A stretch of DNA of 64,000 nt, taken from positions 32,001 through 96,000 of the IMG/VR virus record IMGVR_UViG_3300021185_001461, one strand, 5' to 3'. The translations under genes were made by a program, and so were the position numbers. The notes beneath the pieces were generated by a model. It was given only the letters and a program-made list of their open reading frames with translations. It searched no databases and had not been told where the DNA came from. How positions within the stretch are numbered: the first letter of the stretch is position 1; every line of letters starts with the position of its first letter. Shown here piece by piece: positions 1,877 to 32,027 of the stretch. The DNA comes from a virus.

Positions 1877-2674
1877 TTAGTTGTTATTTGAGGCTATATT
1901 TATCAAAAGGTCCTCAAAACTTTCACAAATGCACCTTTCAAATCCATCTGCCCACAGTCCATGAATAATCATATGGATTCTATTTTCTGTTCCTGTATGC
2001 AATACACTGTGATTCCTTCCAATATCAATAGCACGAGCCTCGCCTGGTTGCCATGGTATTAGTCCTGCTTCTTCTAGTGCAAACTCTACGCCTGGGGGAT
2101 TGCTAAGAGCTACATTAAATGCAGCCATTCGTCTTTCTTTAAAATCACTATGTGGCTGAATAAAACCCTCTGGCTCTAATAACATATATCTGACTCTATG
2201 ATATTCTTTAATTGGAAAAGTATTCTTTAACCATTCAACTGTAACTGGGCAATCTTTTGCAATTTCTGTCCAAGTATACGGTGCTATATTATCTTCAGAA
2301 TCAATTCCTTCTTCTACATAATAATTTGCAGGTTGTGTTCTTTCTGCTGACTGTCCGTGTACTGCAATACTGCTCCATCCTGGATTCCACCCACCTCTAT
2401 GTTTAACAAACCTATCAAGGAATTGTTCAGCTTCAGCAGTCATTTCTTTATAAGGTACTGGTATATTTAAAAGTAAACTAGGACAGTTACTATCTTGTAT
2501 AATCCATTTTGCATATTTATTTTCAACACGTTTATCATTTTTCCAATTATCAAATTCATTACCTGGTATTTTTAAACCATGATAATGGTTTGTAGTTTGT
2601 TTGCATTCAGTAATAAATTCTTTTACTTCTTTTAAATTATTAAAGTACTCACTGTCTTTTTTTATTTGTTCCAT
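1877..2674 (-). CDS. Aspartyl/asparaginyl beta-hydroxylase-like 2OG-Fe(II) oxygenase
   Basis: RVRYMLLEPEGFIQPHSD (HxD) ... HSVLHTGTENRIHMIIHG: facial triad and distal Arg typical of the AspH family. Confidence 0.8.
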   Translation of the reverse strand: MEQIKKDSEYFNNLKEVKEFITECKQTTNHYHGLKIPGNEFDNWKNDKRVENKYAKWIIQDSNCPSLLLNIPVPYKEMTAEAEQFLDRFVKHRGGWNPGWSSIAVHGQSAERTQPANYYVEEGIDSEDNIAPYTWTEIAKDCPVTVEWLKNTFPIKEYHRVRYMLLEPEGFIQPHSDFKERRMAAFNVALSNPPGVEFALEEAGLIPWQPGEARAIDIGRNHSVLHTGTENRIHMIIHGLWADGFERCICESFEDLLINIASNNN

Positions 2675-4086
2675 TTTAAAAGCCTAAATATATGTTGTTC
2701 TGATAATTCAGAAAAATCTGTACGAGCAATATGTTCATCTATCCAATTTATTCGTCGAAAATCACTGTTACAATCAGCATTGTATACTAGCATATTATTA
2801 TCTACGCTACGTTCATGTAATTTATGTAATAATTCTCTACCTAATTCATACCTTTGTTGTAGGCTATAATAAAACGAAGTAGGCATATAATGAAAAACAT
2901 TACTAAGATGAATGTATGTCATTTTATTTTCAATACGTCTTGTAAATCCTTTATATTGATGTACATCAAACAAATTAAGTTGTTCAGTTCTTATATTGAT
3001 TAAACCAAATTCTTCTTTTTTCCATTCAGCAAAACCTTCTTTGTTTAATTCGTCTATTAGTTCTTGAGCATTAATTAGTTGGTTTTGTCCCTTAAAGTTT
3101 ATTCCCTCTGCAGAGTCCATAATCTTTTTTGCAAATTCAATATAAGAAGTATTTGGATCATATTCATCAAATATCTTTAAGGTATATTTTATTGCACTAG
3201 GAGAAACATCATATATAAGAACAGTATCTCGGCGTTTTAGTCCTAATTTAAATGCAAAAATAAGTGCAGTTAATCCAGAAGCAGGACAGACTATTTGCTC
3301 AAATAAAGGCCATCGGTGTTTGGCAGTAGCTAATTCCATAAGTTCAAATGGAATTGTTTCAGTATTAGCAATAAAAAATGAGTTATTAAATTGAATCTCT
3401 TCTAGAAATTGTGACCTATGTCGAGGCCCATCTTCTTTTACTTCTGCATATGCATATTGCTTTGCTACTCTACATTCATGTGACCATGATAATATTTTTT
3501 CTCCAGATTCTATTAAAGACTTTACTATATTCCAACCTTCGCCTCGTTGTCCCTGATATGTTTTTAAATCTTTACCAGGAGCAATCCAATGTGGTGTATA
3601 TTGATCATGATGATTTTCTTTACTACGTATAGGTACTATTGTTTCAAGTGGTGAATCCCATGTTCTTTCTCCCCATTCAGGAAAGCCAGCTTCTGCCCAC
3701 CAATTGAGATCTATAAAAAATGCTTGTGGATGTACTTCGTAATAACCTTCTTGTCTGTCTAATACGTGACCAATAAACTTAGCATCTGGGTTTGCTTCAT
3801 GAAACTTTTTAAACTCTGGTAAAAAGCTATCTCCACGTAAAGTAGTTCCTTGTTTAAATACAATTATCTGTGAAAAACCGTCTTTGTGTGCTTGAGTTAA
3901 TAAATCAAATATAGTGTCGCCTGCAAACTGTTTATCAAAAAATATTCCAAATTCAACTGACCAATAATCGGTCATATTTTTTGTATAACCTTTTGCAAAA
4001 TCATCTTTAATATTGTTGTTATATAACCAACCAACTGTTATTTCTTTGTTTTGGCTTTTTGATTTCCACCATTCTTCATTAAACAT
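2662..4086 (-). CDS. Hypothetical two-domain protein (possible transferase N-terminus; SAM-binding-like C-terminus)
   Basis: 474-aa ORF with GGAG RBS. C-half has CPASGL..IYDVSPSA..LNLFD..IHLSNVFHY, reminiscent of class I SAM folds. Confidence 0.55.
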   Translation of the reverse strand: MFNEEWWKSKSQNKEITVGWLYNNNIKDDFAKGYTKNMTDYWSVEFGIFFDKQFAGDTIFDLLTQAHKDGFSQIIVFKQGTTLRGDSFLPEFKKFHEANPDAKFIGHVLDRQEGYYEVHPQAFFIDLNWWAEAGFPEWGERTWDSPLETIVPIRSKENHHDQYTPHWIAPGKDLKTYQGQRGEGWNIVKSLIESGEKILSWSHECRVAKQYAYAEVKEDGPRHRSQFLEEIQFNNSFFIANTETIPFELMELATAKHRWPLFEQIVCPASGLTALIFAFKLGLKRRDTVLIYDVSPSAIKYTLKIFDEYDPNTSYIEFAKKIMDSAEGINFKGQNQLINAQELIDELNKEGFAEWKKEEFGLINIRTEQLNLFDVHQYKGFTRRIENKMTYIHLSNVFHYMPTSFYYSLQQRYELGRELLHKLHERSVDNNMLVYNADCNSDFRRINWIDEHIARTDFSELSEQHIFRLLKWNK

Positions 4087-22135: not shown

Positions 22136-23650
22136 TTAAATTGGGAAATATCTAAAGTCAACTGTTGAACTAGTTGACGGAGCAGTTGTAAATGTTAAAG
22201 TTGTACCACTAATACTATATTCAGTTGGTTGCAAAATTAATCCATCTACTATGGCTAATACGCTATCAACTGTGTGTCCAGTTGGAATAGTATATTGCGT
22301 TGTAGTATTGTCTCCTGTATACTGGTTACTAGTATATATCAAATCTAAGTGTTGGTTTTCTACAGAGTTATTCACTAAACTTACATTTGTTGCATTTGGA
22401 TATCTATACTTAACATAAATCTCATCATTATTAGCAGGAGTCTCATTGAATGATAATGTTGTTCCACTTAACGAGTATATACTAGGACGTTGCAAAACAT
22501 CATTTACATAAACGTCTATAGATTCTTCATCTGCTGGCGAGTCTGTTAATGTGTAATCAACTGTTGATCCATCTCCTGTAAATTCTTGAGAAGCAGGAAT
22601 TGAATTAGATGTAATACTATTATCTGTAAACGAGAAATTACCATTACCATCTGTTTGTAATACTTGACCAACTGTACCATCACTTATACCAAGGTCTAAT
22701 AAATCACTAATATCACTAGCAATTGTTATTCCTTTGGAACCAGTAGTAGTAACTGGAGTAAGTGTAATATTATTACCAGCACGTATATCAATTTCGTCAA
22801 CTGCACTTGCAACAATATCAGTTGGTGTTGTATCACTAACTGTATCGTAAACATGCCACGTTTTAAACGTTGACTCAAGTGTAATTGTAACTGTACCATC
22901 ACTGTTGTCTGTTAATGCAAAACCACCATCGACATCAAATTTTAGTCCTGTTACATCTGATACACTTACGTTTGATGTTGGATCATTTATTTCTTCAACT
23001 GATAATGACGGTAGATTATTTACAATTTCTGTAAACGAGTCTAATGCTGCTGGATCTGTGTTTGATATTATATTAGCTACATCTGTTTGTAATGCAGTAA
23101 TGTCAGCGGATACACTCGATGATGCAGTACCTTTAGTTCCAGAATATGTTGCACCAGATATATAAACACTCTTACCTGAGAAGTTTACACCATCCGGTAA
23201 GTTTGTGCCAATAAAGTTTAATACACCTGACTGATAATCAAAGAACCATTCGTCATTGTTACCACTACCAGTTGTAAAAACTTTGTTAGATAATGACTCA
23301 GCACCTGCGGCATCACCGCTGGTATGAATATAAACATTTACAAGATATGTTGCACCAAATTCAGTTGGAATCCAATCTGTTACTCCTGTTTTCCAAGTTC
23401 TATTAGTACTTGCAGTAATATCAGCAGTTGCTTCAACAGCCGTTTGTATTGTTACTGGGCTTGTTGTAGTACTGGGCTTAACTGAAGGAATACTACCAGA
23501 TTCTGCCCAAATTGTATCACCACGTATTAATAACGGACTTGGTAAACTTTCGTTGGCAGCAAGTTTGTTAGAATTAGTATCAGTTTTGGTTGCACCAAAA
23601 CCAACTTTCTTAAATAGATAGTCTAACTTTTGATTATCGGAAATTGCCAT
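22136..23650 (-). CDS. Virion structural protein (fibre/baseplate-associated)
   Basis: Thr/Ser-rich; C-terminal repeats FTGDGSTVDYTL..VYVNDVLQRP..YSLSGTTLSF. Confidence 0.7.
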   Translation of the reverse strand: MAISDNQKLDYLFKKVGFGATKTDTNSNKLAANESLPSPLLIRGDTIWAESGSIPSVKPSTTTSPVTIQTAVEATADITASTNRTWKTGVTDWIPTEFGATYLVNVYIHTSGDAAGAESLSNKVFTTGSGNNDEWFFDYQSGVLNFIGTNLPDGVNFSGKSVYISGATYSGTKGTASSSVSADITALQTDVANIISNTDPAALDSFTEIVNNLPSLSVEEINDPTSNVSVSDVTGLKFDVDGGFALTDNSDGTVTITLESTFKTWHVYDTVSDTTPTDIVASAVDEIDIRAGNNITLTPVTTTGSKGITIASDISDLLDLGISDGTVGQVLQTDGNGNFSFTDNSITSNSIPASQEFTGDGSTVDYTLTDSPADEESIDVYVNDVLQRPSIYSLSGTTLSFNETPANNDEIYVKYRYPNATNVSLVNNSVENQHLDLIYTSNQYTGDNTTTQYTIPTGHTVDSVLAIVDGLILQPTEYSISGTTLTFTTAPSTSSTVDFRYFPI

Positions 23651-26600
23651 TAACTAGTCTCCCCGATAGATATGCTTGTAATTTGCTTACCGCTTGCTAG
23701 TGCTACTCTAACTAACACAACATTGTTTGTTGCATTACTCATATTTTCACTACCTAGTGTCATTGTATAACTTGAATTAATACTTGAACCTGTTGGTACT
23801 GTGTCTGAACCTGTTAACGCACAACCATCACTTCCGTTACCTCCGTTTCCAGTATCACTACCTGGAACACCTGCACCAGCATATTGACTTGTACAGTCTA
23901 GCCAGCCATTTAATCCACTTGCAGTATCAACACCAGTACCTGGTGCTGCAATCCATAGTCCTGCAATACCCGTACTGTTTATACTGATATTAAAGTTAGC
24001 AACAACTTGTCTTCGGAAAGCAAAAGTAAAATACTGTGTTCCAGTATCTGAGCTTCTATCAGGACCTACTGGTAGATAGCCTGTACTATAATCAGTAGTA
24101 TCATGTTTTAGTACACCCCAACGTACAGTTGCTTCTTGTGTTCCACTTACACTAATTGCACCAGTGAATGGTGTAGAAATATAATTAGTAGAACTTGATA
24201 TTGCTGGAGTATCTGTAGTAGAAGATATAAAGTCAGCAACACGAATTCCGTCATCAGTAATTACACCGTTACCTAATCCACTTGCTACAGGTATATCGTC
24301 CTCTAAAACACCCGTAGGATTAGCAGTATGCACCTGTACAGCGGTGTTTGTTAGTTCTGCATAGTTTGAGCTACCATTTACATTATTCGCTTTAAATTTA
24401 AGCGTTTCGACTGCTTTAACACTACTTGTAGTAATGTTAATTGTTTGGTCTGCTAATGCATATGACGAACCAAATCCAGTATTAGCATTTGGTATACCTG
24501 ATGTTAAATAAGAAACTGCTTCTAGGTCTGCATATCCTTTATACTGTGTACTAATAGTAGCACCGCTTGTGCTTTCTGAATTATTACCGTTAGCAATTTC
24601 AAATACATTGTTTGTATCTCTATATGCTTGTCCAATCCAGTTAGAAAGTGATGCACCACTTAGTGTGAGTTGTGGGTTTCCTGTGTTGTAGTATGGAATT
24701 CCAGATATATATCTGTAACTACCTGCGGTGCTTTCTGTCAAAGTAGCACTTGCTAAGTCAATAGTAGGAACGCTAGTTAAGTCATCACAAATAACTGTCA
24801 CGTAGTTAGTATTGCCTGTTGCATTGTGCTCTATTCTTTGATCGTTAACACCTGTTGAATATTCAGCAAATGGTTTAGTAATTTTTGCATCGAATGTTTG
24901 ATAAAAACCTGTAGGATAAGTTGAAGAACTTATACTATCATTTGCATCTCTTTGATCACTAATTACCAAGCTGTCAAAAGTACCGTTTTCATTTAAGGAA
25001 GTAGTAAACGCTTTTGAACCATCTGCTGAACCGTTAACGATTGCAGTTGCAGTACCACTTAAACCATTATATACATTTTGTGCAATGCTGGTGTCAATAG
25101 TACCGTTAGTATATCGTCTTTCGGTATTTGTTTTTAAACTTGCTCCAGCCGAGACTGGTGATGTTGCACTATTATCAGTAAAGTTATTGGCTAGTTTAGG
25201 ATCAATACCCTGTGCGGAATCAGTAAGTGTAATTGTTTTTGTACTTAATCCGCCTGGTGCGTTTGGCACTGCATTAACTTGAAAAGTTAAGCTGGCCGAA
25301 TCTGTTTGAGCTGTTATATCTGGAGTACCTGTTGCAGTAAAATCTAATTGATAGTTACCAGGTGTTACTCCTGTAAAATCATGTTGGACACTGTTTAGTC
25401 CTGCTTCATTGTCATTAGCACTGCCATCGTTCCAATCGTATTCATGATTGTCACCATTTTCACTTGTGTTGTTTACAGTAACTAATGCTCTGTTTACGCC
25501 GTTATAATCTACGCCATCATAAACATCATATATGTTATCGCCGTTACGGTCTGAAACTGTATCAGCACTACCTGAGATGTTAGCTCTAACATCTGGTTCT
25601 ACATGAATTACAAAGTCTGTACTTTCAAAAGGACTGCTAGTGTGATTACTTACAACTTGTAAGTTACCTGTATAATCTGCTGGCGTACTATTATTTGAAA
25701 GTGTGTACTTGTGTGTTATTGTTCTTCCGGTATCACCGCTTTGATTACTTCCTGCGTTTACTGTTGTAATTGTTCCATCACCAAAATCCCATCTATAAGT
25801 TGTTCCATATGTACTGTAACTTCCTATAGTATTTTCAGTGTTGTTAGTAAATGTTACTGTTAATCCTGCATTTGATTCTTCATTAATACCTGTTGTAATA
25901 TTTGAAGTAGTATCAGGTGTATGGTCATCATATATTTTATACGAAGCATCATCATCAAGTGGGAGTATTGATGGCGTAGCTGTGCTATGACTGTCTAATG
26001 TTAGTGTAACGGTTCTTTGTACTTCTGCTTCTGTACTAAGAGCAAACGTGTGAGACAATCGTCCTCCGCCTACACCGCCTGCTACACTATCGCTATTAAT
26101 AACATCATCTGCGGAACCATCACCCCAATCCCATGTGTATTGAATTACTGCTCCTGATGTGTTAGTTGTTGTATTTTCGAAATAGACAGTATCGCCATCA
26201 TCCCAATATGTAATTGCGTTGCCACCAGTTGGTGCATCGTATACTACAAATGAAACTGCTGGATCGCCTGTAAAAATTGTTATATAATCTTCTCTTATTT
26301 TAGTAGAAGTTGAACCTGTTCCAGATCCATTATTATTAAAAGCCGTTACTGTTACATCAAACGGGCTTCCTGTGTTAGTTGAATAGGTATGAGTTGGAGT
26401 TGAATCTGTTGTTGCAGTTGTTGAGGAACCATCGCCCCAATTAATAGTATATCTGTTTGGATTTCCGTCAGCAGTAATAGTAAGAGTAGAAGTTAGACCT
26501 GCGCCGCCTGTAACAATGTTAGCAGTAAAATCAACGCCTTTAACAAATGTATTATTCTGTACGTTTAGAAGTGCTTCGTTAATATCATCAATAGCATCAC

Positions 26601-26868
26601 CTACTGTTGTAGTACTTAACCATCCTTCAATTGCACCGTCTGTCCAACTACTGTCTGAACTTACACCTAATGTTAAATCAATAGCATTACTACCACCACT
26701 ATTTGCTTCTAGGTATGCTTTTGTTACAAGATCTTGTTGATCTACTGGATCAGATGCGTTTTTAACAATCTTCGCTGAAACATCAATATTACTTGTGGAT
26801 CCTGCATCTAATATTAGGTCAGATTCTGATTTAATTTTATCTGCCTGATGATTTATGTTTATAGCCAA
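23650..26868 (-). CDS. PKD-domain virion structural protein
   Basis: Several PKD motifs (YTINWGDG, YTWDWGDG, YRWDFGDG, YDWNDG); TTG start after GAGGA. Confidence 0.8.
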   Translation of the reverse strand: MAININHQADKIKSESDLILDAGSTSNIDVSAKIVKNASDPVDQQDLVTKAYLEANSGGSNAIDLTLGVSSDSSWTDGAIEGWLSTTTVGDAIDDINEALLNVQNNTFVKGVDFTANIVTGGAGLTSTLTITADGNPNRYTINWGDGSSTTATTDSTPTHTYSTNTGSPFDVTVTAFNNNGSGTGSTSTKIREDYITIFTGDPAVSFVVYDAPTGGNAITYWDDGDTVYFENTTTNTSGAVIQYTWDWGDGSADDVINSDSVAGGVGGGRLSHTFALSTEAEVQRTVTLTLDSHSTATPSILPLDDDASYKIYDDHTPDTTSNITTGINEESNAGLTVTFTNNTENTIGSYSTYGTTYRWDFGDGTITTVNAGSNQSGDTGRTITHKYTLSNNSTPADYTGNLQVVSNHTSSPFESTDFVIHVEPDVRANISGSADTVSDRNGDNIYDVYDGVDYNGVNRALVTVNNTSENGDNHEYDWNDGSANDNEAGLNSVQHDFTGVTPGNYQLDFTATGTPDITAQTDSASLTFQVNAVPNAPGGLSTKTITLTDSAQGIDPKLANNFTDNSATSPVSAGASLKTNTERRYTNGTIDTSIAQNVYNGLSGTATAIVNGSADGSKAFTTSLNENGTFDSLVISDQRDANDSISSSTYPTGFYQTFDAKITKPFAEYSTGVNDQRIEHNATGNTNYVTVICDDLTSVPTIDLASATLTESTAGSYRYISGIPYYNTGNPQLTLSGASLSNWIGQAYRDTNNVFEIANGNNSESTSGATISTQYKGYADLEAVSYLTSGIPNANTGFGSSYALADQTINITTSSVKAVETLKFKANNVNGSSNYAELTNTAVQVHTANPTGVLEDDIPVASGLGNGVITDDGIRVADFISSTTDTPAISSSTNYISTPFTGAISVSGTQEATVRWGVLKHDTTDYSTGYLPVGPDRSSDTGTQYFTFAFRRQVVANFNISINSTGIAGLWIAAPGTGVDTASGLNGWLDCTSQYAGAGVPGSDTGNGGNGSDGCALTGSDTVPTGSSINSSYTMTLGSENMSNATNNVVLVRVALASGKQITSISIGETS

Positions 26869-26939
26869 CTTCTTCTATTCCTCACAATTTCGCTTCGCTC
26901 TTGCGTTTTTGTATTTATTTTGTTTTTTCTAGCTTTGCT

Positions 26940-27539
26940 TTATGCTATGCTAGAACCATAAACAGAAAGAATAGACCAACCAGAACTTGTATAAATTAAA
27001 TCTATACTTTGTCCTGCTGTTGTAAAAGATATTGTATTAAAACCATTTGCAGTATCCGGTGTTACAACTACTGTACCACTTGGTGCTGATATAACAACTA
27101 TTGTTTTTCTTTCACCTACTTCTCCATTTGCTAAACTTAATGCCAAATCAGTACTTACATCTATATACAACATTCCTGTTGTGCTAGAAGATGCTGAGTT
27201 TGTTACTGATTGCGGTATTGTTACTGCTTTTTGAGAATAAGATGTATTCCAAGGTTTTATAGTGCTACCTATGTTATATATGATCCCAGAGGCTGTGTTT
27301 GGAATAACATGGCTGCTTATATTGGCATTTATTGCCAATGAGCCTCCTCCATTGCCTAGTGATATAACATCTCCGTTTACTAAAAGAGTTCCACCTACAT
27401 ACATATTTCCTGATGTATAATGGCCTCCTTTAATATGAAGTGCTGCACCTACTGGATCAACAGGAGATACGCTAACGTCTAATGCATTAGTGCTTTCAAT
27501 TACTAGTGTTCCAGAATCTGGGTTAATGTGTGATGACAT
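26940..27539 (-). CDS. Hypothetical structural protein
   Basis: Beta-rich 199-aa ORF; late box at 27575-27583. Confidence 0.65.
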   Translation of the reverse strand: MSSHINPDSGTLVIESTNALDVSVSPVDPVGAALHIKGGHYTSGNMYVGGTLLVNGDVISLGNGGGSLAINANISSHVIPNTASGIIYNIGSTIKPWNTSYSQKAVTIPQSVTNSASSSTTGMLYIDVSTDLALSLANGEVGERKTIVVISAPSGTVVVTPDTANGFNTISFTTAGQSIDLIYTSSGWSILSVYGSSIA

Positions 27540-27611
27540 AATACTTTTTCCTACTACTTCCTATTATTATATATGTATTTATCAAAGACAGAGAGTTTTT
27601 GCTGCTCAAAG

Positions 27612-27636
27612 AAAAAGACGCTCTAAAGCGCCTTTT
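27612..27636 (-). terminator. Intrinsic terminator closing the candidate ncRNA unit
   Basis: aaaaggcgct-ttag-agcgtctttt then U-rich on the minus strand. Confidence 0.75.
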
Positions 27637-27642
27637 AAAAAA

Positions 27643-27856
27643 TAAGCAAAATAGGTAGGACTCGGTTATACCTACAAGCACGTACACAGAATACCATTCT
27701 ATCACGCACAACCTAGTTCCGCTCGGTAGAGCAATGTGATCCTTAGTCTCTCAACCTCGAACCTGGGTACCACCCCTAACTAGTCAAGTTCGACCCTTCT
27801 GGTAAAGGCCTCTTCCTTGCACTATAAACAAAAGTTAATTATTCTCTTGTTGCTAT
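27643..27856 (-). ncRNA. Candidate structured non-coding RNA (about 210 nt)
   Basis: No credible ORF, GC-enriched, several stems with G-U pairs on the minus strand, bracketed by a sigma70 promoter and a terminator. Confidence 0.6.
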
Positions 27857-27862
27857 GTACTT

Positions 27863-27891
27863 AATATACAACGTTTTTGCATAAAGGTCAA
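27863..27891 (-). promoter_or_regulatory. Sigma70-type promoter
   Basis: TTGACC-17-TATATT with an A-tract upstream; no ORF between it and the terminator. Confidence 0.8.
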
Positions 27892-27909
27892 CCTTTTTTT
27901 TAAAAAAAA

Positions 27910-28062
27910 TTAAATTTTTTGTAATCTAGGGTCTGATGCAAGAATATTCTTGTCAGCACGTGGTCTTGACAATGGTCTTTGCAGTTGTTTTTTGTGAATT
28001 GCTTTGTGTGATCGTTTAGTACGCTCTTTTTTACGAGCTATTTCGAAGTCTCTATGATTCAT
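27910..28062 (-). CDS. 50-aa basic peptide downstream of riboswitch-like motif (not in ORF track)
   Basis: AAGGA RBS; MNHRDFEIARKKERTKRSHKAIHKKQLQRPLSRPRADKNILASDPRLQKI. Confidence 0.75.
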   Translation of the reverse strand: MNHRDFEIARKKERTKRSHKAIHKKQLQRPLSRPRADKNILASDPRLQKI

Positions 28063-28085
28063 AACACTCTTCCTTTTAAAGTTAA

Positions 28086-28132
28086 GTGCGTTCCTTCGCT
28101 AGTGCTACTTCCGTCCTAATTTAGGATGAACG
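28086..28132 (-). ncRNA. Glutamine riboswitch-like element (glnA / Downstream-peptide family)
   Basis: CGUUCAUCCUAAAUUAGGACGGAAGUAGCACUAGCGAAGGAACGCAC: P1 CGUUC/GAACG, P2 UCCUA/UAGGA, GGAAGUA E-loop strand, short P3, GAAG. Confidence 0.75.
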
Positions 28133-28135
28133 TGA

Positions 28136-28168
28136 GAAAAAAATAGGCCCAATAAAGGGCCTATTTTC
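28136..28168 (-). terminator. Intrinsic terminator of major capsid gene
   Basis: aaaataggccc-tttatt-gggcctatttt plus U-run. Confidence 0.88.
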
Positions 28169-28195
28169 ATATTGAATATGTATTCTAGTAAAATA

Positions 28196-29359
28196 TTACT
28201 GGAATGACAAGTTACCTGAGTTAACATCAATTTTAGATAGGTAATCAGCTGCGTTACCAAGAGATGAAGCTTGGTTGTTTAGCTCAACATAACCATAACG
28301 TGTCATAAATGATACTGTTGGTTCGAATGTTGCCGGATCTAATACTGTGCCTGAGCTCATTAGTGGGATGTATGGGCAGTAAAATGCTGCTGCATCAATC
28401 TCACCGTCGCCTTTATAGCCAACTAGTACTGGAGCATTATCTGCCGCGTACTGGTCAACAAAAACACGCATAGTGCCGTTCAAAGTACCAACAAATTTAG
28501 TGTTAGTTGGAGCTTCGAATGGTCCTTCAGTTGTTCTTGCGAACGCTGAAGTTGTTGCACTTTGTAGTACAGTTAACATTGTTGGTGAAATAACAACGTA
28601 GTTACCTGCGCCTCTACGTGTACGTGCTGCGATTAAGTTAGCTGATCTGTTAATAAGAACTGCCAACGCCGCATGCTGGTCTCCAACAAACGTTGCTGTA
28701 CCAGAAACGTTACCCTGGTCATATGTGTCTGTTGCCGTACCCGCTAATGTGCGAAGTGAAGTTAAAACTTCTTGATCAATCTCAGCAGTAATTTCTTGTG
28801 CAAGTGCTTGCATAATTTCTGCTTCAACGTCTAGACCGTGCATTGAATTAGCATCTTGTGCCGCTTCAAAAGTCCAACGTGCTGATAATTTACGTGTTTT
28901 CGCTTCAACAGTTTGTTTCAATACTTGGATTGAAAGCTTCTTACCAGCTTCTGCCTCTAGTGCTGAAGTTGAAGTTGCTGTACCGTTTGATGCGTCACCT
29001 GAGTAACCTTTTGCAATTGCGAAAGGTGATAGTGCTTCATCACCAGCTGTTACGCCAGCTGCTGTTTGGCCATATCTTACTCTTAATGTGTGAATTTGTC
29101 CTACTGGACCTGTCATAGGTTGTACACCTACTAGTTCGTTTGCGATAACTGTTGGCATCACACGACGAATAACTGGAAGAATCACTTTGTTAAGTGATGC
29201 TACGTTACCTGCCATAGTTGTGCCAGCATTAGCTGATTCTGAAAGGTAGCCCTTAGTGTTTTCTAGGACTGATTCCATTACAACCTTTTTGTTACCTTCT
29301 AAGCCATCTGTAAGGGCGTCTTTTGTAACGTCCCAATTTTCAAATAGATTCTGTGTCAT
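28196..29359 (-). CDS. Major capsid protein (gp23-like)
   Basis: VIRRVMPTVIANELVGVQPMTGPVGQI, VEAKTRKLSARWTFEAAQD, FYCPYIPL, FMTRYG. Confidence 0.96.
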   Translation of the reverse strand: MTQNLFENWDVTKDALTDGLEGNKKVVMESVLENTKGYLSESANAGTTMAGNVASLNKVILPVIRRVMPTVIANELVGVQPMTGPVGQIHTLRVRYGQTAAGVTAGDEALSPFAIAKGYSGDASNGTATSTSALEAEAGKKLSIQVLKQTVEAKTRKLSARWTFEAAQDANSMHGLDVEAEIMQALAQEITAEIDQEVLTSLRTLAGTATDTYDQGNVSGTATFVGDQHAALAVLINRSANLIAARTRRGAGNYVVISPTMLTVLQSATTSAFARTTEGPFEAPTNTKFVGTLNGTMRVFVDQYAADNAPVLVGYKGDGEIDAAAFYCPYIPLMSSGTVLDPATFEPTVSFMTRYGYVELNNQASSLGNAADYLSKIDVNSGNLSFQ

Positions 29360-31956: not shown

Positions 31957-32027
31957 TTGACATTCTCCTTTATCGAGGTTATAACACATGTATTTAGTCT
32001 TACTGCTAGGCAAGATATCTTAAATAC

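Follow-up and report, generated by a model that had tools for sequence, protein, structure and literature searches.

manA RNA as a promoter–RNA–terminator unit in one subclass of marine phage loci

The minus strand of a 64,000-nucleotide (nt) stretch of virus DNA (IMG/VR record IMGVR_UViG_3300021185_001461, positions 32,001 to 96,000; this whole stretch is the window below, and all coordinates are those of the window unless a locus is named) carries at 27645–27850 a segment that belongs to the already described manA RNA family (RF01745). In the window and in most of its relatives, the RNA has its own promoter and its own Rho-independent terminator, which is the organization of an independent small-RNA gene. 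The reading that we favour, with some confidence but well short of certainty, is that manA copies of the type found in the window (class A below) form an autonomous, probably early small-RNA gene and not a leader, and that the product is a trans-acting, self-assembling RNA. The original prediction, made from the letters of the window alone, had proposed a structured non-coding RNA with its own promoter and terminator, and this arrangement has proved to be the rule in this subclass of phage loci. It had also taken the RNA for an unrecognized one; in this respect it was mistaken, as the RNA reaches the curated Rfam threshold for manA, described in 2010. The novelty of the RNA itself is lost because of this strong match to a described family, an outcome that the prediction had named beforehand as removing novelty. 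What is new here is a modest point on architecture, namely manA as a promoter–RNA–terminator unit in one subclass.

Since its description in 2010, manA has remained an orphan among riboswitch candidates. The passages on manA in the paper that described it report its presence in marine metagenomes, T4-like cyanophages and two gamma-proteobacteria, present it as a probable riboswitch (rated 'Y' as cis-regulatory and 'y' as a riboswitch) and place it in the 5' untranslated regions (5' UTRs) of mannose/fructose, nucleotide, ibpA and photosynthesis genes (Weinberg et al., 2010; PMC2864571). Its curated alignment holds 48 significant pairs (Rfam 14 paper), and the S-CREM1 paper counts manA among the cyanophage cis-regulatory RNAs, with a role still to be verified (PMC9964418). 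Our literature searches yielded no transcript map of a marine T4-like phage with a mention of manA; supplements may already annotate the terminators or the subclass described here.

An all-Rfam search of the whole window gave two matches only at the gathering level: manA at 27645–27850 on the minus strand and a glutamine riboswitch at 28085–28134. The manA match scores 59.8 bits against a curated gathering cut-off of 55.2, with E = 9.7e-13 in the whole window and 1.4e-14 in a local search of 901 nt, and covers positions 1–192 of the 192 in the model, untruncated, with four non-canonical pairs flagged. The segment thus has the gathering score, the full-length model with all its helices and the covariation (described below) that are expected of a manA RNA, and its occurrence also agrees with that of the family in marine phages and metagenomes: an IMG/VR virus record, at least 113 relatives on viral contigs and Pelagibacter phage Mosig. 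All other Rfam families in 27400–28300 remained far under their own cut-offs (for example RmaA, 22.9 versus 57). The 121-kb record contains a single manA match and no second copy, and ARAGORN found no tRNA or transfer-messenger RNA (tmRNA) in 26500–29000.

The RNA lies in a minus-strand stretch of 370 nt without a credible open reading frame (ORF), between an ORF of 50 amino acids (aa; 27910–28062) and one of 199 aa (26940–27539). The main features of the unit are as follows.

27863–27891, minus strand: sigma70-type promoter, with -35 TTGACC at 27891–27886, a 17-nt spacer and -10 TATATT at 27868–27863, scoring 10/12
27645–27850, minus strand: manA RNA core (RF01745), consisting of a 5' hairpin, a closing stem and further hairpins, identified by the Rfam match and covariation in 62 relatives
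27645–27850, minus strand: loops of the core hairpins, UACCAG, GUGGUA, GAGA (GNRA), CUACCG, UGGUA and UAUAACCGAGU
27828–27850, minus strand: 5' hairpin, the first helix of the model (helix 1), with double changes in 6/7 pairs among relatives
27792–27810, minus strand: hairpin GGCCUUU/AAGGGUC with loop ACCAG (helix 4), in which 98.5% of alignment cells pair
27713–27783, minus strand: long-range stem CUAGUU/AACUAG enclosing three hairpins (helix 5), with 5/6 pairs doubly changed and 99.5% of cells pairing
27677–27710, minus strand: two-part hairpin GUGCGU...AGAA / UUCU...ACGUGC with loop UGGUA (helix 10), with 6/6 pairs doubly changed
27655–27675, minus strand: hairpin GUAGG/CCUAC with an 11-nt loop (helix 12), in which 100% of cells pair
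27608–27636, minus strand: intrinsic terminator, made up of an A-tract, stem GGCGCU/AGCGUC, loop UUAG and a U-run, with the hairpin at 27636–27613

Most of what the original prediction had read from this stretch holds. The promoter TTGACC-17-TATATT is present at 27863–27891, and the terminator announced at 27612–27636 corresponds to the hairpin and its T-run. The only frame over the RNA is a TTG-started ORF of 62 aa (27523–27711), which runs across the terminator. The G+C content is raised, at 0.442 versus a window mean of 0.354, which places the RNA in the top 3.8% of 206-nt segments. The structure belongs to the minus strand, where the fold has -79.2 kcal/mol and z = -2.53 relative to shuffled sequences, compared with -46.2 kcal/mol and z = +0.53 on the plus strand. 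The four stems that had been named all exist and coincide with helices of the Rfam consensus; only the position of GGCCUUU/AAGGGUC was about 10 nt off, the true one being 27810–27792. After small register adjustments, all 58 pairs of the projected Rfam structure are standard pairs in the window sequence.

Relatives were retrieved by one exact 16-mer from the RNA core, which matches at least 119 viral contigs. From 121 matches listed, 113 with a second manA motif were kept and eight chance matches were dropped; counts on relatives rest on the matches listed, so that at least 113 related copies exist. Since all of these share the 16-mer, they represent one subclass. The whole RNA lies within the fetched DNA in 100 of the 113 copies, the other 13 being cut by a DNA end, and collapsing identical sequences left 62 distinct sequences for alignment. 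Among isolate phages, blastn matched manA only in Pelagibacter phage Mosig, with 73% identity.

Covariation in this alignment of 62 sequences is extensive. With the Rfam structure projected onto it, 91.9% of cells are standard pairs, compared with 35.5–52.6% when the partners are slid by 1–3 columns. Double-sided changes occur in 37/58 pairs; in 500 shuffles, not one of the five measures observed was ever reached. RNAalifold, run without a prior structure, predicted 47 pairs, 28 of them with compensatory changes. On this evidence the structure is real, and it is that of manA. The homologues and the covariation for which the original prediction had proposed to look are therefore both present.

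The support for the promoter comes from its conservation at a fixed distance in the relatives and not from the scan of the window. A site of at least 10/12 is present in 89 of the 98 relatives with at least 80 nt of upstream DNA, and in 78 of these 89 the -10 hexamer ends 39–41 nt before the shared 16-mer. The commonest -35 hexamers are TTGACA (40 loci) and TTGACT (36), and the commonest -10 hexamers are TATATT (58) and TATAAT (18). Between the window and Mosig, the hexamers are conserved and the spacer differs. Transcription would start near 27856, about 7 nt past the -10 hexamer, and the type of promoter suggests early expression.

The terminator hairpin of the window (-8.1 kcal/mol) is present in the minimum-free-energy fold, and in the full transcript its pairs have a mean probability of 0.95. 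When a terminator is counted as a hairpin with a T-run that starts no more than 45 nt past the closing stem, it is found in 64/94 relatives, corresponding to 47/70 distinct downstream contexts. A first, wider scan, which took the best hairpin anywhere in 160 nt, gave 69/94. In 61 of these 69 sites the terminator stem starts 13–19 nt beyond the closing stem and hence does not overlap with it. Two classes of relatives can be told apart from the 3' tail. Class A, which has the tail ...UUUUGCUUAU and includes the window, is terminated in 61/69 cases; class B has the tail ...UUUCGCAU and includes Mosig.

No switch is predicted between the terminator and the RNA. In all 44 distinct terminated transcripts, the mean pair probability of the terminator stem is at least 0.875 (median 0.965), and pairing of the 5' arm of the terminator with upstream sequence does not exceed 0.037. 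Equilibrium fold prediction accordingly gives none of the mutually exclusive structures that characterize a riboswitch. Furthermore, 31 different terminator hairpin sequences follow a nearly invariant manA 3' end, which makes a conserved anti-terminator impossible. The copy in the window also departs from the 5' UTR position implied by the Rfam type 'Cis-reg', because both the terminator (27636–27608) and a late-promoter-like motif precede the start codon at 27539. For class A, the absence of a predicted switch, the varied downstream partners and the downstream ATAAATA all speak for a terminator that is constitutive and an RNA gene that is independent.

The features downstream of the terminator in the window are the following.

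27576–27582, minus strand: ATAAATA motif before the next gene, resembling a T4-type late promoter, a function that it may have
26940–27539, minus strand: 199-aa ORF of unknown family, the next gene downstream of manA
23650–26868, minus strand: 1072-aa protein with PKD domains, after the 199-aa ORF

We liken the ATAAATA motif to the T4-type late promoter consensus, which we take to be TATAAATA. ATAAATA occurs within 140 nt downstream in 54/94 relatives, whereas rough arithmetic for DNA of such composition gives about 5% by chance. The 199-aa ORF has no PHROG or Pfam family and no tblastn match in 50,697 phage records; in the Atlas it falls in viral hypothetical clusters only, and a weak lead to T4 gp9/10 concerns 11% of one neighbouring cluster. 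Among the relatives (loci designated L), what lies downstream is varied, with convergent genes and other RNA genes among the partners, yet gp32 is recurrent in class B and L121 has a gene of the mannose-6-phosphate-isomerase type. Partners on the same strand are a mannose-6-phosphate-isomerase/cytidylyltransferase (L121), a TonB-dependent receptor (L100) and a radical-SAM/SPASM protein (L011). Convergent ones are a tail fibre (L102), with its stop codon at a distance of about 74 nt from manA, a protein resembling class II aminoacyl-tRNA synthetases (L101), a carbamoyltransferase (L030) and a baseplate hub (L047). By naive picking, which takes the longest of the nearest ORFs, the nearest long ORF is on the opposite strand in 10/70 distinct contexts; ten ORFs, four of them on the opposite strand, were checked by family search.

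Taken together, we propose the following course of events for the window. The host sigma70 RNA polymerase would start near the position given above, transcribe the manA fold of about 206 nt and stop at the terminator, which would yield a discrete RNA of about 245 nt. As the terminator looks constitutive, the most likely role for this RNA is that of a trans-acting folded particle, rather than a leader of the next gene, a late, structural one, which would be driven from its own late-promoter-like motif.

A further property may follow from the loops. A 2026 preprint reports that manA RNAs form decamers and a 60-mer cage in vitro, as seen by electron cryo-microscopy, and that these oligomers are built of pentamers through kissing loops (L5–L7', L8–L9' or L3–L8') and a GNRA loop–receptor contact; the preprint offers no biological setting and still treats manA as a putative cis-regulatory element (bioRxiv 10.64898/2026.07.01.735769). 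Numbered by hairpin order, the loops of the window RNA are L3 UACCAG, L5 GUGGUA, L6 GAGA (GNRA), L7 CUACCG and L8 UGGUA. It therefore has two loops of the GGUA type and two of the UACC type, which are mutually complementary, and one GNRA loop. Complementarity of at least four bases between L3 and L8 is seen in 87% of the 62 sequences versus 18% of shuffles. By analogy with the family members in the preprint, the window RNA probably forms closed homo-oligomers through loop–loop contacts and the GNRA loop. A more far-reaching version, which we regard as possible and offer tentatively, is that manA of this subclass is not a riboswitch; it would be an early, terminator-bounded RNA that assembles in the infected cell into a pentamer-based oligomer or cage and acts in trans, for instance as a scaffold or as a sink for a host factor or metabolite, with the gene-fused cyanophage copies as a derived or second use of the fold.

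Metatranscriptome data from four RNA runs were available as contigs, which show no ends, strand or level and which come from libraries that can contain DNA. Contigs of run X7 that are 90–95% alike cover parts of manA with a word depth of 26–137, compared with about 6 on the flanking ORF; we base on such contigs no statement about transcription, read-through or habitat. In run X1, an exact contig of 199 nt spans 27428–27626, its strand and ends being unreadable.

The principal alternative is that manA is a riboswitch or cis-regulatory leader whose fold senses a ligand or protein and thereby sets early read-through into the 199-aa and 1072-aa genes. The arrangement of an aptamer with a terminator behind it is common among riboswitches, and several observations count in favour of such a leader or weigh against an independent RNA gene. 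The canonical cyanophage-type copies were collected by a second scan with an Rfam-consensus pattern, in which 38 of 120 matches were dropped as they had no GGTGGT motif. Of these copies, 66/72 loci have a promoter and only 11/72 distinct contexts have a terminator within 45 nt; many run directly into genes, as the original cis-regulatory reading would have it. In class B, 22/25 relatives are unterminated, and members of the class directly precede gp32 or rubrerythrin; the next gene in L121 carries a mannose-6-phosphate-isomerase domain. Equilibrium folding is compatible with a kinetic or ligand-induced switch. An exact 232-nt contig of run X2 (27440–27671) bridges the terminator, with neither strand nor ends readable. 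The terminator is absent from the list of a general terminator scan and was found by our own script with similar rules; the scan probably missed it since the A-tract and T-tract lengthen the stem. The promoter scan of the window taken by itself is at chance, with nine promoter-like sites versus 8.3 +/- 3.0 in shuffles. The self-assembly argument is affected as well, since the correspondence between our loop numbers and those of the preprint is our own inference. Complementarity of at least four bases between L5 and L7 (92% versus 63% of shuffles) is barely above the control, and cross pairs also score (L3–L5, 84% versus 36% of shuffles; L7–L8, 69% versus 30%), so that an assignment of kissing-loop partners was ruled out. 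Lastly, the discoverers classed manA, in the passages concerned, as almost certainly cis-regulatory and probably a riboswitch (PMC2864571).

Nevertheless, other evidence points away from a leader. In 61 of the 69 sites of the wider scan the terminator stem begins clear of the closing stem, none of the 44 distinct transcripts is predicted to form an alternative pairing, and the 31 terminator types are unaccompanied by a matching change in the conserved 3' end of manA. The nearest long ORF can lie on the opposite strand, a tRNA-Asn directly follows manA in three canonical loci, and the next gene in the window has its own late-promoter-like motif; moreover, the literature that we found on manA reports no ligand. 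We therefore consider a riboswitch or leader unlikely, although it retains appreciable weight because canonical copies run into genes, a kinetic switch is possible and a contig bridges the terminator. It is improbable that the RNA is instead the 3' part of a longer transcript, that is, a structured 3' UTR or processed product of read-through from the unit of glutamine riboswitch and 50-aa peptide, with only a minor role for the promoter. No hairpin terminator is visible between the stop of the peptide (27910) and the manA promoter, and 7/16 scanned relatives have a same-strand glutamine riboswitch upstream of manA. However, the promoter is kept in 89/98 loci, including loci without a glutamine riboswitch at threshold (9/16 scanned) and Mosig, where ordinary genes lie upstream. 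That the structure arose by chance, or that the locus is a small protein gene, is barely conceivable: the ORF of 62 codons does overlap the 3' part of the RNA, but what covariation preserves is base pairing and not codons, the terminator that the ORF crosses varies in sequence and length among relatives, and the Rfam E-value is 1e-14. The protein-coding reading was rejected on the first two of these grounds.

Some layouts in class B and among the canonical copies deserve separate description. Most unterminated class B loci run through the TATAAATA motif into gp32. In L117 (1291–2202), and in about 20 similar loci, the order after manA is TATAAATA, then about 70 nt of A/U-rich leader and finally gp32 (PF08804, E 1e-44). 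In Mosig (L001, 4253–5650), manA stands directly before a rubrerythrin gene, which is followed by gp32. The translational operator of T4 gene 32 comprises a structured element and an unstructured leader, and the class B layout recalls it. In the canonical loci L238 (1729–1801), L129 (344–417) and L160 (2877–2951), a tRNA-Asn lies directly after manA on the same strand. In the 60 nt upstream of manA in the canonical loci L123–L242, inspection by eye showed that the -35 hexamer TTGACA is often placed within a G+C-rich hairpin followed by a T-run; because of this position, the terminator-like element of the preceding unit overlaps the manA promoter.

manA is often accompanied by other structured RNAs. 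In the window, a glutamine riboswitch (RF01739, 52.5 bits) and a basic ORF of 50 aa form a minus-strand unit (27910–28134) directly upstream of the manA promoter. In 6/16 scanned relatives, manA is followed on its own strand, after about 70–450 nt, by a freshwater-2 RNA (RF02980, 66–77 bits); the window has no freshwater-2 RNA. The positions of the six copies are given below.

L018, 954–1040: freshwater-2 RNA
L025, 5566–5649: freshwater-2 RNA
L109, 2060–2148: freshwater-2 RNA
L039, 10561–10644: freshwater-2 RNA
L037, 5351–5433: freshwater-2 RNA
L041, 3603–3685: freshwater-2 RNA

In the loci whose sequence was read (L025, L037, L039 and L041), the freshwater-2 RNA sits behind a late-promoter-like GATAAATAC. 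Glutamine riboswitch, manA and freshwater-2 often occur in that order and constitute a small island of structured RNAs. Three further observations concern RNA genes in these regions. In L056 (11054–11192), a tRNA-Trp lies directly upstream of the glutamine riboswitch, which is followed by manA, all on one strand. In Methylophilales phage Melnitz-1 (L003, 2586–3074), a stretch that resembles the glutamine-riboswitch region of the window, with 85.5% identity over 75 nt, coincides in part with the 3' end of the annotated tmRNA 'SsrA' (2586–3038); the annotation may be over-extended, or the tmRNA and the glutamine-riboswitch-like RNA may abut. In Mosig (L001, 586–889), a permuted tmRNA (RF04321, 93.6 bits) is found about 3 kb upstream of manA.

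The virus record is 121 kb in length and 33% complete according to CheckV. Its major capsid protein (window 28196–29359) is of the gp23 type (Pfam Gp23) and is closest, with 68–70% identity, to those of the jumbo phages Sinorhizobium phage Phosso, Vibrio phage 2.275.O and Pseudomonas phage PA5oct. Owing to this proximity to jumbo phages of 285–470 kb and to the estimated completeness of the record, the virus may have a jumbo-sized genome. Of the four phage records searched, which did not include PA5oct, only Mosig has manA; Vibrio phage 2.275.O, Sinorhizobium phage Phosso and Methylophilales phage Melnitz-1 gave no match. The manA cassette appears to move between phage lineages, since it is carried both by the window virus with its jumbo-type capsid and by the T4-like pelagiphage Mosig, and gave no match in Phosso and 2.275.O. 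A promoter–RNA–terminator unit that recurs in very different neighbourhoods and phage lineages is the signature of a trans-acting RNA gene, and the terminator-bounded subclass provides a concrete, testable setting for the cage observation.

Compared with the manA motif as described, the window RNA has the same fold, the same conserved nucleotides in junctions and loops and the same habitat, marine phage DNA (RF01745; Weinberg et al., 2010; PMC2864571). It nevertheless represents a divergent subclass at the edge of the RF01745 model, of which 6/16 scanned relatives reach the cut-off. Its closing stem is AUAG/CUAU, in contrast to GGGAG/CUCCC in the manA consensus, a terminator separates it from the next gene, to which it is not fused, and the capsid of its phage is closest to those of jumbo phages. 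The canonical cyanophage-type copies, such as that of S-CREM1 (PMC9964418), have the same helix architecture and also a promoter directly upstream (66/72, compared with 89/98 in the subclass of the window). They differ in that they are terminated in 11/72 contexts versus 47/70, many continuing into a gene, gp32-like or other, and some into tRNA-Asn. The homo-oligomers of the preprint are formed by RNAs of the same Rfam family, and the window RNA shares their complementary loops and GNRA loop; the constructs used there are other manA members, to which we liken the window RNA from its sequence. The glutamine riboswitch (RF01739) and freshwater-2 (RF02980) are structured RNAs of the same marine phages with folds unrelated to that of manA, and in the window the glutamine riboswitch precedes the 50-aa ORF whereas manA precedes a terminator. 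ROOL and GOLLD, which are several hundred nt long, unrelated to manA in sequence and of unknown function, resemble the window RNA by description: they are stand-alone structured RNAs of mobile elements, often lie beside tRNA genes and form RNA-only multimers.

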